A stretch of DNA of 64,000 nt, from UHGV virus genome UHGV-1384413. The stretch is one strand, 5' to 3'. Source of the stretch: a virus. The stretch's first letter is position 1. Every line of letters starts with the position of its first letter. Below, piece after piece: positions 25,457 through 30,604 of the stretch. The translations under genes were made by a program, and so were the position numbers. The notes under the pieces were generated by a model, which worked only from the letters and a program-made list of their open reading frames with translations, had not been told where the DNA came from and made no database searches.

Positions 25457-26833
25457 ATGCCATATTTAGATAAAGTGGTAGATGTTACAGTTAACCTCGG
25501 AACCCAACCTATTGACACTGTAGGTTTCGAAACTCCCCTGTTCATCGCTATCCACAACAACTTTACTGAGCGAGCTCGCGTATATGCGGAGCTGGATCAG
25601 ATGGTGGAAGATGGTTTCGCACAAGGCTCTGCAGCGTATGAGTTTGCAGCAAAAGCTTTTGGTGGTGTATTCCCTCCACAATATGTTATGATCGGCAGAC
25701 AGGCCAAAGAAAAAACCACTGTAGATTTTAAAGGTATTGCTGCCGCAGCTGATACCGATGTCGTAATGACCATTGCAAAAGGTGGCTACAATACTTCTTT
25801 GATAGTCCCTATCTCTGGTGGAACAGGTGCAACTCAGATTGCAGAGTCTATGAAGACTAAGATCGAAGAAGATGATAGCTTGGATGGTATCTCTGTAGAA
25901 GCTGCCGATGGTGTTATCACCATCACTGGTGACTGTACTGTTGGTTATCATACTGGTAACTATACAATCAAAAATATCGCCAATTCTGAAAAACCTTCTA
26001 CAGTAGTTGATAAGATCAATGCTGAGCGGGACAATTGGTACTTCCTGTGCCATGAAGACCACACCGACATTGAGGCATGTGCTAAGTGGGCTCAGGCCAA
26101 CTACAAGCTGCACGTCTACTCTACTGCAGAAGATGTGACTGGCAAAGATAGTAACATCGCTACCAAACTGAAAGCTGCACAATATGACAGTGTTGGCATG
26201 TACGATCCTCGCGCAGATAAGGACTTCCCGGAGGGTGGTATCATAGGTGCTATGGCATCCAACGATCCGTCCTACGGTGACAGCTTGCACTTAAAACAGA
26301 TGCCAGGTGTGATTGCACCATCTCTGACTTTAACTCAGCGTATGGCGATTTGGGAAAACCACGTTAACTTCTACAGAATGATTAACGGTGTTGGAGCTTT
26401 CTGGGAAGGTAAGTGTGCTTCAGGTCAATATGCAGACGCTATTCGTTTTGCACACTGGATCAAGTTCAGATCTGAAGAATCCATGTTTGGGTACATGCAT
26501 CGCCGCTCCAATATGGGTTTAAGCATGAAGATGTCTGATGATGATCTTCCGGTTATCAAGTCTGTTCTGATGAACAACCCGATCAATACTGGCATTAAGA
26601 ATGGCGCGATCCTGACAGGTTTTGACGAAGACAACAATGTGTTCTACGACCCGATCATTACAGTTCCTAAACGTGCAGAGATCCCAACCAATCAGTTGGC
26701 TGCTCGTGTTCTGGAAGGTGTGAAAGTAGAACTGGTGTATAACAACGCCCTGCACTTCGTTCGTATCCGGATCAACGTCCTCCTGGACAAAGTTGGTTCT
26801 AAATCCACCAATGCTGTTGCAATGACTGAATAA
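25457..26833 (+). CDS. tail sheath protein (alternatively a major tail protein)
   Basis: 458 aa followed by a 157-aa tube-sized gene, chaperones and tape measure; C-terminal region resembles sheath proteins; gp25-like and V-like baseplate genes downstream support a contractile tail. Confidence 0.45.
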   Translation: MPYLDKVVDVTVNLGTQPIDTVGFETPLFIAIHNNFTERARVYAELDQMVEDGFAQGSAAYEFAAKAFGGVFPPQYVMIGRQAKEKTTVDFKGIAAAADTDVVMTIAKGGYNTSLIVPISGGTGATQIAESMKTKIEEDDSLDGISVEAADGVITITGDCTVGYHTGNYTIKNIANSEKPSTVVDKINAERDNWYFLCHEDHTDIEACAKWAQANYKLHVYSTAEDVTGKDSNIATKLKAAQYDSVGMYDPRADKDFPEGGIIGAMASNDPSYGDSLHLKQMPGVIAPSLTLTQRMAIWENHVNFYRMINGVGAFWEGKCASGQYADAIRFAHWIKFRSEESMFGYMHRRSNMGLSMKMSDDDLPVIKSVLMNNPINTGIKNGAILTGFDEDNNVFYDPIITVPKRAEIPTNQLAARVLEGVKVELVYNNALHFVRIRINVLLDKVGSKSTNAVAMTE

Positions 26834-26843
26834 GGAAGACTAG

Positions 26844-27317
26844 ATGGAAACTCAAATTTTAACTCCTTATGCTTATGACCCTAAAAAGGTCAAACTGTAC
26901 CTGATGCAGCAGCGTGTCACTGGCTTCGCTGCTGACACCAAGATCGTTGTTTCAAGAAACGAAGACAACATCTACCCTCATGTTGGTGTGGATGGCGAAA
27001 TGTCTGCAGCCCTGTCTCGTAACCAATCTGGTGTTATGACTGTGTCTTTGCAGAACACTTCTGTATGGAACGCCTACCTTTCTGACTGGCAGAAACAGGC
27101 ATCTATTACTGGTCTGGTATTCTTCCCGGTTCTGCTGGAAGGTAGCCAGGGTCCTGGTATTGCTACAATCGGTTGGATCCAAAAACAGCCAGACCTCACT
27201 TACGGAACCGAAGTAGGTCAGCTGGACTGGGATATCGGTATTCTGGATGCATGGCTCAACCGTGACAACATCACTGGTGCTCTCACTGGCCTCGCAGGTC
27301 TTGCAGGTATTATCTAA
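26844..27317 (+). CDS. tail tube protein (putative)
   Basis: 157 aa directly after the sheath candidate; terminator follows. Confidence 0.4.
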   Translation: METQILTPYAYDPKKVKLYLMQQRVTGFAADTKIVVSRNEDNIYPHVGVDGEMSAALSRNQSGVMTVSLQNTSVWNAYLSDWQKQASITGLVFFPVLLEGSQGPGIATIGWIQKQPDLTYGTEVGQLDWDIGILDAWLNRDNITGALTGLAGLAGII

Positions 27318-27335
27318 GGGCACACTTTAGTATAA

Positions 27336-27366
27336 GCCTCACCTTCGGGTGGGGCTTTTTGCTTTT
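27336..27366 (+). terminator. rho-independent terminator
   Basis: gcctcacc-ttcg-ggtggggc then TTTTTGCTTTT. Confidence 0.7.
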
Positions 27367-27407
27367 ATGGTTTTGACAAACTCTTTTGGATTGCTTGAAA
27401 GGTTAAA

Positions 27408-27437
27408 TTGACAATGCACCATAATCATGGTAAAATA
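27408..27437 (+). promoter_or_regulatory. sigma70 promoter with extended -10
   Basis: TTGACA 27408-27413, 17 bp, TGGTAAAATA 27428-27437. Confidence 0.55.
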
Positions 27438-27479
27438 CACAAATATGGTGCACAACATGACTAATAAGGATGCTATAAA

Positions 27480-27953
27480 ATGGCTATAAACTTTAGACCT
27501 ACAACAGAGATTGATTTAGCAGGGCACAACTTTGTGATCACCCACTGGGGACCGATGAAAGCAATGAAAAACATGCCTAAAATCGGTAAGATTGTAGCTG
27601 TCCCGCTAGGAGCTGTCGGCGGATCTATTCTCTCAGGTGGTCAGAATATGGCAGAGGTCCTTCCTACAGCCCTGGCTTACCTGTTTCAAGAACTTGATGA
27701 TAACTCTATTGAAGAGTTATTTAAAATCTTGTTCGAAGATATTACCGTGGATGGTGTGGATAAGCTTAACCCTGATGTTGTGTTTGCAGGGCATCTGCTG
27801 GAGATGATTAAGCTGGCAGGTAAGGTTCTGGAGGTTAACTACGGCTGTTTTTTCACACAAGACGGTTTAGGAAGCCTTCTGGAGATGTTACAGCAGATGG
27901 GTATGATCCAGCAGGTGAACAATCTGGATCAGGCTCCGGAAGAGCAGGAATAA
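27480..27953 (+). CDS. tail assembly chaperone
   Basis: 157 aa immediately upstream of the tape measure gene; acidic C-terminus; contains slippery heptamer T TTT TTC. Confidence 0.45.
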   Translation: MAINFRPTTEIDLAGHNFVITHWGPMKAMKNMPKIGKIVAVPLGAVGGSILSGGQNMAEVLPTALAYLFQELDDNSIEELFKILFEDITVDGVDKLNPDVVFAGHLLEMIKLAGKVLEVNYGCFFTQDGLGSLLEMLQQMGMIQQVNNLDQAPEEQE

Positions 27954-28213
27954 GCAAGGTTGTTGTGAGGGCCAGTGAGTGGGCAGCCAAGAACAGTTCA
28001 CTTAACTGGTTCGACTTTCTTTGGTGCAGGGTGCTCAAGAATTTCAAAGGGGAAAATTTTGAATCGCTAAATCTTGCAGATATGGCGTATTTCCTGAAAC
28101 TCTGTGAGTATCTTGATATCGAAGAATTCCTAGATACCGTCCAAAACAGGGAAATGGAGCGGGAGCAGAAGGCTGCCGCAGCTGCTGCGAAAGCTAAGCG
28201 CAGGAGAGGATAA
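27848..28213 (+). CDS. -1 frameshift extension of the tail assembly chaperone (G/GT-like product)
   Basis: -1 frame open from 27824 to 28213, overlapping the 3' end of the 27480 ORF; slippery site 27848-27854 in the zero frame; ends in an Ala/Lys/Arg-rich tail. Confidence 0.4.
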   Translation, partial: FFHTRRFRKPSGDVTADGYDPAGEQSGSGSGRAGISKVVVRASEWAAKNSSLNWFDFLWCRVLKNFKGENFESLNLADMAYFLKLCEYLDIEEFLDTVQNREMEREQKAAAAAAKAKRRRG

Positions 28214-28218
28214 TCTAA

Positions 28219-28253
28219 GGGCCGGATTCCTTTTCTGGGATCTGGCCCTTTTT
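28219..28253 (+). terminator. hairpin terminator or attenuator
   Basis: gggcc..ggccc stem then TTTTTATT. Confidence 0.4.
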
Positions 28254-28267
28254 ATTATGAGGAAAGC

Positions 28268-30604
28268 ATGGCTACAAACAAAATAGTTGCCACAACAGTC
28301 AACAAGATTGGCTTTGAGATAGAGAACTCCTCCTACAAAAAAGCTGTAGAGAAAATTCGCAGTATTGGGAGAGAGTTCAGGAAACTGGGCGAGGATTTTA
28401 ACTCAGCCAACCCAATGAGTAGATGGCAGGCAGTGGCTGTTAAAACCCAGCAAACAATGCAGCGGGTTGCCAGACAGCAATCTCAGGCAAATGCTAAATT
28501 GCACAGGGAGAGCGTAACACAAGCCAAGAAAGAGGCTGCAGTAAGGGCTGCAATAGAACGTAGGGAGAACGCGAGACGTAAACAAGCTGTAGGTAATCTT
28601 ACCGCTAAAAATCCAGAAATGGCTAGGATGCGTAAGTTCTACCAGCAGCAAGCTAAAGAGGCCAAAAAGGCTGCCAAATCTGCACCAGTGTCTTACGGAG
28701 GTTATAAGGCACCTAAGGCAAGAGTTTTGGCTAATGCCAAATCTTTCAAATATATCCCCGGTAACCCTAACATGGGTGGTGTGGCTTCCGACCCTAATCT
28801 TGTGAAAGCTCAGACAGCGGCTATGAACCGTTACCATAGGCAGCTAAGAAGGGACAGTAAAGCTGGTATGGATAATAGGCTTATGTCGGATCGTGAGGCA
28901 AGAAGAACCCACCTCTACAACTCTGCGATAAGACTTTCTGCCAAGTATGGGGCTGGATTCCGTGGAAGCTTGCCAGGATACTCAGAGTTAGAGTCCAGGT
29001 TTGCTCGCGGAGAGATGAAAAAGTCAACCTTTAACGCCCACCTGTCAGCTCTGCAGTCTGGGTTTAAAAGCGCCACCAGCCAAACGCTTACACTAGGCGA
29101 TGCCCTGAGAGACTTACGTAGATCTGTTATTAATGCAACAGCTGCGTATACAGCTTTTTCTGGATTTGCTGCGGTGAACAGATCCGGTCACATGATGGAG
29201 GGGGCAAGTGCTGCTCTTACTGCTGTTACTGGAGATCCAAACAAAGCCAACAGTGAAGTTGCGTTTGTCCAGCAGGAGGCTATGCGTCTTGGTTTTGATC
29301 TCAAATCTGGTCTTCAGGGTTATTCTCAGATGGCGGTGAACGCCAAAAATCAGATGACGAACCAAGAGGTCCATGAGCTATTCTCTGCATACTCACAGTA
29401 TGCTGCTGCTTATGGTGCCGATGAGGTAAAATACCAGCGCGGTATTATGGCAATCCAGCAAATGCTCGGTAAAGGGCAGGTAATGTCAGAAGAACTTAAG
29501 CAACAGCTTGCTGAGGCGTTACCTGGGGCATATGAACCTTTCATCAAGGCCACCAAAGAGGCTTTTGGTCTTTCTGAACTCTCCATGGATCAGTTCATGG
29601 ACATGATGAAGAAAGGTGAGGTTAAAACAGCCAAGATCATGAAGTATGTGGCTAAGTACATGAACGAGGCATCTGCAGCTGGTTATGAGAGAATGCAGAA
29701 GTCTAACGTGCTGGCAGAAAACAGACTGAAAACCTTCATCGAACTGTCCCGTCAGAAACTGTTCACCCGTTGGGCTGACGAACTAACAGAGTTCTATTAT
29801 ACACTGATTCGCACTGGTGAGACTTTGCAATTTGTGTGGGATGCCTCTGGTGATTTTGTTAGCGGGTTTGTGAGAGGTCTCAACTGGGTAGTTGGTGAAC
29901 TAAACAATACCATAGTCAAGATCCGCCTGTTTTTCCTTGAATGGGGGATTAAATGGGGATTCATAACAGCTAAGACGAAGGAATATTCTGAAGAGCTTCA
30001 TGACACCTTTAGTTATGCTAAATGGGCAGGGTTTGCTGCTGCCATCATGCTGGTCGTCAACGCCCTAACAAAAGGTTTTGTCATGGCATCTATGCTTGTA
30101 AAAACCTTTAAATTCCTTAGCTCTATAAGAGGCGCAGCTGGAGCAGCAGGTGCAGCTACTGCAGAAGGATCTGGTGGTGGTGGCGCGGCAGGAAAAGGTG
30201 GAGGTGGCCTCAAGACACCTGGTGGTAAAGTTGGCCTGCTTGGTAAGCTGGGTATTATCGGTACAATATTGAGCGCCGGGGAGTTATTTAATGACCGTTT
30301 CAACCCACTGAGTGAGAGAAATCAGCAACTGGATACTATCAGCGATATGATTCGCAAAGATATCATATCTGGAGGTAACGGGTTTGTTGATCCTTTGGAC
30401 ACCTTACCGGGCGGTACTCTTCCGTTGCCGGGTGGCCCTGGTTTTGCTTCTCAATTAAGAACTATGGAAATGCTCCCTTTAGAGATTAGTGATGGGAAAA
30501 TCACGATTTCAATAGATGAGGGTGAGTTTAGCAAAATACTTGATGCAAAACTTGAGTGGGAGAACAACAAAGATATTAACTTTATGTCAACAGATCTTTG
30601 GTAA
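28268..30604 (+). CDS. tail tape measure protein
   Basis: 778 aa, Ala/Gln/Lys-rich helical N-terminal half, Gly-rich hydrophobic segment AAGAAGAATAEGSGGGGAAGKGGGG; follows the chaperone pair. Confidence 0.6.
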   Translation: MATNKIVATTVNKIGFEIENSSYKKAVEKIRSIGREFRKLGEDFNSANPMSRWQAVAVKTQQTMQRVARQQSQANAKLHRESVTQAKKEAAVRAAIERRENARRKQAVGNLTAKNPEMARMRKFYQQQAKEAKKAAKSAPVSYGGYKAPKARVLANAKSFKYIPGNPNMGGVASDPNLVKAQTAAMNRYHRQLRRDSKAGMDNRLMSDREARRTHLYNSAIRLSAKYGAGFRGSLPGYSELESRFARGEMKKSTFNAHLSALQSGFKSATSQTLTLGDALRDLRRSVINATAAYTAFSGFAAVNRSGHMMEGASAALTAVTGDPNKANSEVAFVQQEAMRLGFDLKSGLQGYSQMAVNAKNQMTNQEVHELFSAYSQYAAAYGADEVKYQRGIMAIQQMLGKGQVMSEELKQQLAEALPGAYEPFIKATKEAFGLSELSMDQFMDMMKKGEVKTAKIMKYVAKYMNEASAAGYERMQKSNVLAENRLKTFIELSRQKLFTRWADELTEFYYTLIRTGETLQFVWDASGDFVSGFVRGLNWVVGELNNTIVKIRLFFLEWGIKWGFITAKTKEYSEELHDTFSYAKWAGFAAAIMLVVNALTKGFVMASMLVKTFKFLSSIRGAAGAAGAATAEGSGGGGAAGKGGGGLKTPGGKVGLLGKLGIIGTILSAGELFNDRFNPLSERNQQLDTISDMIRKDIISGGNGFVDPLDTLPGGTLPLPGGPGFASQLRTMEMLPLEISDGKITISIDEGEFSKILDAKLEWENNKDINFMSTDLW

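Follow-up and report, generated by a model that had tools for sequence, protein, structure and literature searches.

Does the locus between the tail tube and tape measure genes of this phage encode one tail assembly chaperone or two forms of it? We analysed a 64,000-nt stretch of the virus genome UHGV-1384413 (64 kb; the window), in which a first-pass annotation had proposed a programmed -1 frameshift joining two overlapping reading frames, the G/GT arrangement found just 5' of tape measure genes. The 1.1 kb around the proposed site was 99.9% identical to Escherichia phage EduardKellenberger and 95-99% identical to more than 110 further rV5/FV3-like phages of the genus Vequintavirus. Judged by this identity, the source of the window is a Vequintavirus, an rV5/FV3-like E. 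coli myophage. All genes identified in the window lie on the + strand, and its tail module reads in the order sheath, tube, chaperone, 82-aa ORF in the -1 frame, tape measure:

25457-26833, + strand: sheath gene (Pfam DUF3383)
26844-27317, + strand: tail tube gene (Pfam PF11681 KPP10_Orf10, 4e-9; 'tail tube protein' in the EduardKellenberger record)
27408-27436, + strand: predicted sigma-70-like promoter, TTGACA-17-TAAAAT with TG (11 of 12 consensus positions)
27480-27953, + strand: chaperone ORF, zero frame, 'G'-type short product of 157 aa (ORF list, Pfam, PHROG)
27965-28213, + strand: 82-aa ORF, -1 frame relative to the 27480 ORF (ORF list; no Pfam match)
28217-28250, + strand: terminator-like hairpin and T-run before the tape measure gene (14-bp stem, 8 GC pairs)
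28268-30604, + strand: tape measure protein gene (Pfam TMP_3, 3.3e-18)

The chaperone gene looks bracketed by transcription signals of its own. A terminator-like hairpin is predicted downstream of the tube gene (27334-27357), the predicted promoter lies 44 nt 5' of the chaperone start codon, and the hairpin at 28217-28250, called strong, falls between the -1-frame stop and the tape measure start.

The ORF list bore out the 157-aa length of the 27480-27953 product. This protein matched Pfam family PF21822, Phage_TAC_15, over residues 15-129 (1.2e-23; 84.4 bits, cutoff 22) and PHROG 3840, 'tail assembly chaperone' (1.7e-68). The family, the gene order, the heptamer described below and its conservation all support a G/GT arrangement just 5' of the tape measure gene. 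Three features delimit the proposed shift:

27836-27838, + strand: last -1-frame stop, TAA, before the open stretch (translation and stop list)
27848-27854, + strand: slippery heptamer T_TTT_TTC, proposed shift site, codons F124-F125 (the sole zero-frame X_XXY_YYZ in the gene)
28211-28213, + strand: -1-frame stop, TAA, end of the predicted 244-aa fusion (stop list)

The heptamer TTTTTTC is present at 27848-27854 as described in the first-pass annotation, phased T_TTT_TTC in the zero frame, where the codons TGT TTT TTC encode C-F-F. The limits given there for the -1 frame had to be corrected. It was said to be open from 27824 and to overlap the chaperone ORF by 130 nt, but TAA codons occupy 27821-27823 and 27836-27838. 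Because of the second of these, the frame opens at 27839; the open stretch runs from 27839 to 28210 (124 codons), and the actual overlap is 115 nt. The heptamer sits within this overlap, 9 nt past the last -1 stop.

Slippery heptamers are common, and a heptamer may meet an open frame by chance; likewise, a sequencing indel may split one gene into two. In favour of such an explanation there is nothing but the general frequency of heptamers: the window's ORFs of 100 aa or more contain 64 in the zero frame. Against it, the first 119 codons of the gene hold 15 stops in the -1 frame and the 124 codons after them hold none; at that stop density such an open run has a P of about 6e-8. After the 64 heptamers, the -1 frame stayed open for a median of 7 codons. 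On the + strand, the only one with a -1 continuation far beyond the stop was the present site (85 codons); comparably long continuations occurred only in one minus-strand ORF, which we took as non-coding. A -2/+1 shift on the U6 run was rejected as unproductive because the +1 frame hits a stop at 27868.

We therefore asked how widely the arrangement is kept. A tblastn search with the 157-aa protein matched 578 phage records. The set used for comparison comprised 30 loci, with 29 distinct predicted fusion proteins and identities to the window protein down to 28%. It included Vequintavirinae (FV3, GAP31, PVP-SE1, pEp_SNUABM_01, BIS47, CR3, A7_1 and F5M2A), Stephanstirmvirinae and relatives (ESCO5, VivaForever and KP2025), Felix O1-like phages of the Ounavirinae (Alf5 and Moogle), one Aeromonas phage, Rheinheimera phage Barba8S, Pseudomonas phage KoPa-4, and IMG/VR and metagenome contigs. 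An open -1 frame of 106-149 codons, reaching from just 5' of the site to a stop right before the tape measure gene, was found in all 30 loci, and TTTTTTC occupied the aligned N-Y-G-x-F-F position in 28. The two exceptions were Barba8S, which has the lambda heptamer G_GGA_AAG four codons downstream, and KoPa-4, which has G_GTT_TTT. The slippery site is therefore replaceable while the two-frame architecture persists.

Within the 28 loci the shift-site codons were frozen (TTT in 28 of 28, then TTC in 28 of 28), whereas other conserved Phe columns used TTT and TTC at 14:12 and 11:17. The preceding codon always ended in T, being TGT (Cys), CCT (Pro) or AGT (Ser). The 50 nt from 27828 to 27877 were 100% identical in 118 independent phage records, whereas identity over the surrounding 1.1 kb was mostly 95-99%. 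For distant Felix O1-like Erwinia phages, the sole nucleotide match to Alf5 was a stretch of 41 nt around the heptamer. These patterns argue that selection acts on the nucleotides of the shift site and not on the protein alone; as far as the alignments reach, several phage subfamilies share one slippery site at an unchanged codon pair. Neither coincidence nor a sequencing indel accounts for 50 invariant nucleotides in that many records or for a two-frame arrangement in every relative examined. Chance and artefact are effectively refuted by these comparative data, and we assign them a negligible probability.

Some relatives carry mobile-looking insertions beside the chaperone locus. In Barba8S (locus L012, 1832-2470) the -1 ORF and the tape measure gene are separated by an HNH endonuclease gene on the opposite strand. 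In two metagenome contigs of about 116-140 kb, at least one of them from human gut (loci L036 and L037, 1-1144), a large DUF723-containing ORF stands directly 5' of the chaperone gene, in the place of the window's tube gene. A separate observation concerns host labels. Among the matching records, 18-24 are labelled 'Campylobacter phage' with Campylobacter jejuni as host (MG065647, MG065655, MG065661, MG065674, MG065676 and others); they are unannotated and 97-100% identical to rV5-like E. coli phages at this locus. These host labels look doubtful, and contamination or mislabelling is possible.

We consider that a -1 ribosomal frameshift at 27848-27854 yields a GT-type fusion of 244 aa besides the 157-aa G protein, with a probability of roughly 0.86. 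Most ribosomes would read 27480-27953 to the end and produce the short chaperone. A minority would slip back by one base while two tRNA-Phe occupy UUU in the P site and UUC in the A site of U_UUU_UUC. The slipped tRNAs would re-pair with UUU UUU, and the ribosome would then read the -1 frame from C27854 until it meets the stop at 28211. Of the A-site tetramers in E. coli, only A_AA.G is more shift-prone than U_UU.C, and heptamers composed of pyrimidines throughout are favoured, which fits the invariant C at position 7 of the heptamer. Since U_UUU_UUA and U_UUU_UUU are, according to a review, far less shift-prone in E. coli than A_AAA_AAG, we assumed that the efficiency at U_UUU_UUC is low as well; a low efficiency would be in keeping with a long form made in small amounts.

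If the two forms act as in lambda, the N-terminal part that they share would coat the tape measure protein, and the tube protein would be recruited by the extension of the long form. Both forms would then be needed in a fixed ratio and would be absent from the virion.

The predicted long product consists of residues 1-125 followed by 119 residues read from C27854. It would thus begin with the chaperone core (1-125) and run through a basic RRFR segment and a linker rich in Gly and Ser to a conserved, helical domain at the C-terminus. The part beyond the shift site is made up as follows:

27854-27949, + strand: -1-frame stretch after the shift, with the R-R-F-R motif (27860-27871) and a Gly/Ser/Asp-rich linker (fusion alignment; overlaps the zero-frame tail of G)
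27950-28210, + strand: 'T'-type C-terminal domain, ISKVV.RA.EWA.KNSSL.WFD.LWCR..., which includes the 82-aa ORF (alignment, PHROG 10409)

The 29 predicted fusion proteins could be aligned over their full length: core, invariant Phe-Phe, basic R-F-R, a variable linker rich in Gly, Ser, Asp and Glu, and the conserved C-terminal domain, whose family version reads ISKVV.RA.EYA.KNSSL.WFDYLWCR...LNEYLD.EEF. This domain matched PHROG 10409, of unknown function, at 9.6e-51. In the predicted fusion, VLEVNYGCFFHTR is the tryptic peptide that spans the junction; VLEVNYGCFFTQDGLGSLLEMLQQMGMIQQVNNLDQAPEEQE is the peptide expected without a frameshift. The first residues after the shift, H-T-R-R-F-R-K, have the Arg codons AGA, CGG and AGG, the ones that E. 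coli uses least. Almost all relatives retain the basic-Phe-basic motif, even where the slippery site is a different one.

The AF2 model of the short form was of moderate confidence (mean pLDDT 66.7), with a confident core to near residue 125; the last core helix, 106-125, stopped at the Phe-Phe of the shift site, and the tail was of low confidence. A Foldseek search of the PDB with this model returned nothing below E = 1, and a sequence search of the PDB with the fusion protein gave no match. The top fold match, which was not significant, was 5ir0, the ORF19 protein of a Vibrio cholerae PICI-like element, of unknown function (E about 1, probability 0.72-0.75, TM 0.56-0.58 on the target). For the -1-frame part, an AF2 model built with 3 homologues was unusable at a pLDDT of 47; all that it showed was helices preceded by some 35 residues of disordered linker.

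Could the 82-aa ORF be an independent gene, translated without recoding? It would have to start at GTG 27965, either from a weak AAGG ribosome-binding site of its own or by reinitiation 12 nt past the chaperone stop. The window and FV3 indeed have AAGG 5 nt upstream of the GTG, and most GenBank records annotate a separate hypothetical protein here. Yet the start codon of this ORF is not conserved: in most relatives it is replaced by a non-start codon, the variants being CTG, CTC, CTA, CAA, GAG, GAA and TTA. In several lineages the first in-frame start lies well inside the conserved domain, and in BIS47 it lies past the middle of the domain. For two loci (L034 and L039) the database gene callers report no gene at the -1 ORF.

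The coding signatures also begin too early for a gene starting at 27965. We counted the phase of substitutions among 13 closely related sequences, in which all indels were multiples of 3. Between 27480 and 27838, 99 of the 159 variable sites were zero-frame third positions. Between 27965 and 28210 the pattern was that of the -1 frame (63 of 101 variable sites in its third positions), and in the short interval 5' of the GTG, 27954-27964, all 4 variable sites were -1-frame third positions. Protein conservation (ISKVV.RA...) likewise starts upstream of the GTG, the conserved C-terminal block opening at about 27950. An independent gene would, moreover, leave unexplained the frozen heptamer and the 115-nt -1 overlap that is free of stops in all relatives. 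We regard it as highly improbable. Our reading is that the 82-aa 'hypothetical protein' (27965-28213) is the tail end of the predicted long form and not a separate gene, because the slipped product would include that stretch as its C-terminal domain. Some initiation at GTG 27965 may add a little product in this genus.

Within the overlap itself, substitutions followed the zero frame more than the -1 frame; the linker in the -1 frame is open and shows little purifying selection. Such a pattern would be expected if the short form has a conserved C-terminal tail and the long form a tolerant linker. Past the shift site the zero frame runs on for 33 conserved codons, so that about 100 nt would code in both frames. 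A C-to-A change in the window at 27868 replaces Phe by Leu in the zero frame but is synonymous in the -1 frame (Arg, CGx to AGG), so that the R-F-R motif is maintained.

The same 244-aa fusion could also be made by transcriptional slippage, in which RNA polymerase adds one U within the T6 run and ordinary translation does the rest. The site does offer a homopolymer of six T, and the protein product (C-F-F-H...) would be identical, so that sequence alone cannot separate the ribosomal from the transcriptional route. A review, however, places efficient transcriptional slippage in bacteria at runs of about 9 A or T, and the run here is T6 and does not exceed that length in any of 28 lineages. Both the fixed codon phase and the invariant C at position 7 agree with the rules of tRNA re-pairing, and Barba8S has GGGAAAG without a long homopolymer. 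We therefore judge slippage by the polymerase very unlikely. The doubt that attaches to the ribosomal frameshift is nevertheless in part a doubt about the route, ribosome or polymerase.

We then looked for stimulatory elements around the heptamer. A downstream stem-loop or pseudoknot, envisaged in the first-pass annotation, was found neither by folding nor by RNAalifold or Rfam. Downstream folds of 113, 61 and 46 nt in the window and five other lineages stayed within the range of shuffled sequences (z from -1.0 to +1.3), RNAalifold of 12 lineages gave 0 conserved pairs 3' of the heptamer, and an Rfam scan of 27300-28350 yielded no family at the gathering score. The single match, to GcvB at 18.6 bits against a gathering score of 42, was taken as chance and rejected. 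On the 5' side there is one candidate:

27830-27834, + strand: Shine-Dalgarno-like GGAGG, candidate 5' stimulator (13 nt 5' of the heptamer, read from the sequence)

A Shine-Dalgarno-like element spaced 10-14 nt from a shift site is reportedly stimulatory. Vequintavirus, Seunavirus, phAPEC8-like phages and Alf5 have GGAG(G/A) with an unchanged spacing; a GGAGG-like element is absent from Certrevirus, A7_1 and BIS47. Because GGAGG at 27830-27834 coincides with conserved Leu-Glu codons and some genera lack the element, we treat its role as hypothetical. A more far-reaching proposal would be that the shift works without RNA structure, using GGAGG/anti-Shine-Dalgarno pairing and possibly the near-invariant 3' GGTTT, and that the conserved tail of the short form, unusually long at 33 residues and absent from the long form, gives the isoforms distinct functions beyond the lambda model. 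We consider this unlikely. If true, Vequintavirinae, Stephanstirmvirinae, Ounavirinae and Vandenendeviridae would share one ancient minimal U6-type signal.

How does the proposed ribosomal frameshift compare with known systems? In lambda, whose G/GT chaperone frameshift was described by Xu, Hendrix and Duda 2004, two overlapping ORFs are likewise flanked by the major tail protein gene and the tape measure gene. The likeness noted is one of arrangement. The present phage is a myovirus, its heptamer is U_UUU_UUC instead of G_GGA_AAG, and, unlike in lambda, 33 conserved zero-frame codons follow the shift site. The E / E+E' pair of P2 also resembles the present one: P2 has a contractile tail, and a U6-type heptamer lies in its chaperone gene 5' of the tape measure gene, without a hairpin downstream. 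This heptamer is TTTTTTG, with G in place of C as its last base, and the P2 products, at 91 and 142 aa, are smaller than the 157 and 244 aa predicted here.

The Felix O1-like phages Moogle and Alf5 have a homologous family (about 29% identity by tblastn), with TTTTTTC at the aligned F-F and the same basic-F-basic motif after the shift site. In the Moogle record the chaperone is given as a joined CDS, 'with translational frameshift'. These phages belong to the Ounavirinae and differ from the window in a shorter overlap (42 nt in Alf5) and a shorter, more divergent C-terminal domain. The paper on phage Adele from 2025 (PMC12846349), in the portion available to us, predicts -1 frameshifts in the chaperones of Pakpunavirus/Vandenendeviridae and Andersonviridae, clades that it describes as related to Vequintavirinae and that have the same type of tail module. 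Its authors describe a GTTTTT motif that is conserved and a -1 frame that stays open, and they reinterpret the small 'hypothetical' ORF as the C-terminus of the long form. That motif, of the G_GTT_TTT type seen in KoPa-4, is not a full X_XXY_YYZ, and the chaperone analysis in that portion is without Vequintavirinae. With the cassettes of E. coli dnaX and insertion sequences the present site shares tandem slippage on a heptamer, as proposed, and, as a candidate stimulator, an upstream Shine-Dalgarno-like element, here GGAGG at 13 nt. Unlike in those cassettes, no 3' stem-loop or pseudoknot was found at 5-9 nt past the heptamer, and the Shine-Dalgarno-like element is not family-wide; their efficiency is about 50%, whereas here it is presumably low.

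The type of mechanism is thus already known from lambda G/GT, and it is unannotated in the Vequintavirinae records examined. None of these 9 records annotates a join; the second half appears as a separate hypothetical protein, is split, or is left blank. A search of a collection of 5.8 billion proteins returned 72 homologues, all of them short forms of 149-159 aa, and no protein of fusion length. In NHEP1 (locus L002, 2176-2414) the region of the -1 ORF is annotated as two hypothetical genes of 96 and 132 nt, although its -1 frame is uninterrupted and as long as that of the window; in slur16 the region carries no annotation at all. Such inconsistent gene calls illustrate what an unrecognised frameshift leads to. 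In the literature on rV5 and Vequintavirinae we found no paper describing a frameshift and neither a fusion peptide nor any other experiment on it; the rV5 proteomics paper mentions neither chaperone nor frameshift.

The gene is present in about 120 Vequintavirus records and in several hundred records of related phages, many of which are candidates for therapy or biocontrol. Recognising the frameshift would correct their proteomes by a 244-aa GT-type protein, and its value lies mainly in annotation. The conserved site would offer a convenient natural series for the study of structure-independent frameshifting on U_UUU_UUC in enterobacteria. For the phages themselves, the finding would extend the G/GT rule to another large group of myoviruses and would leave the understanding of tail assembly unchanged.
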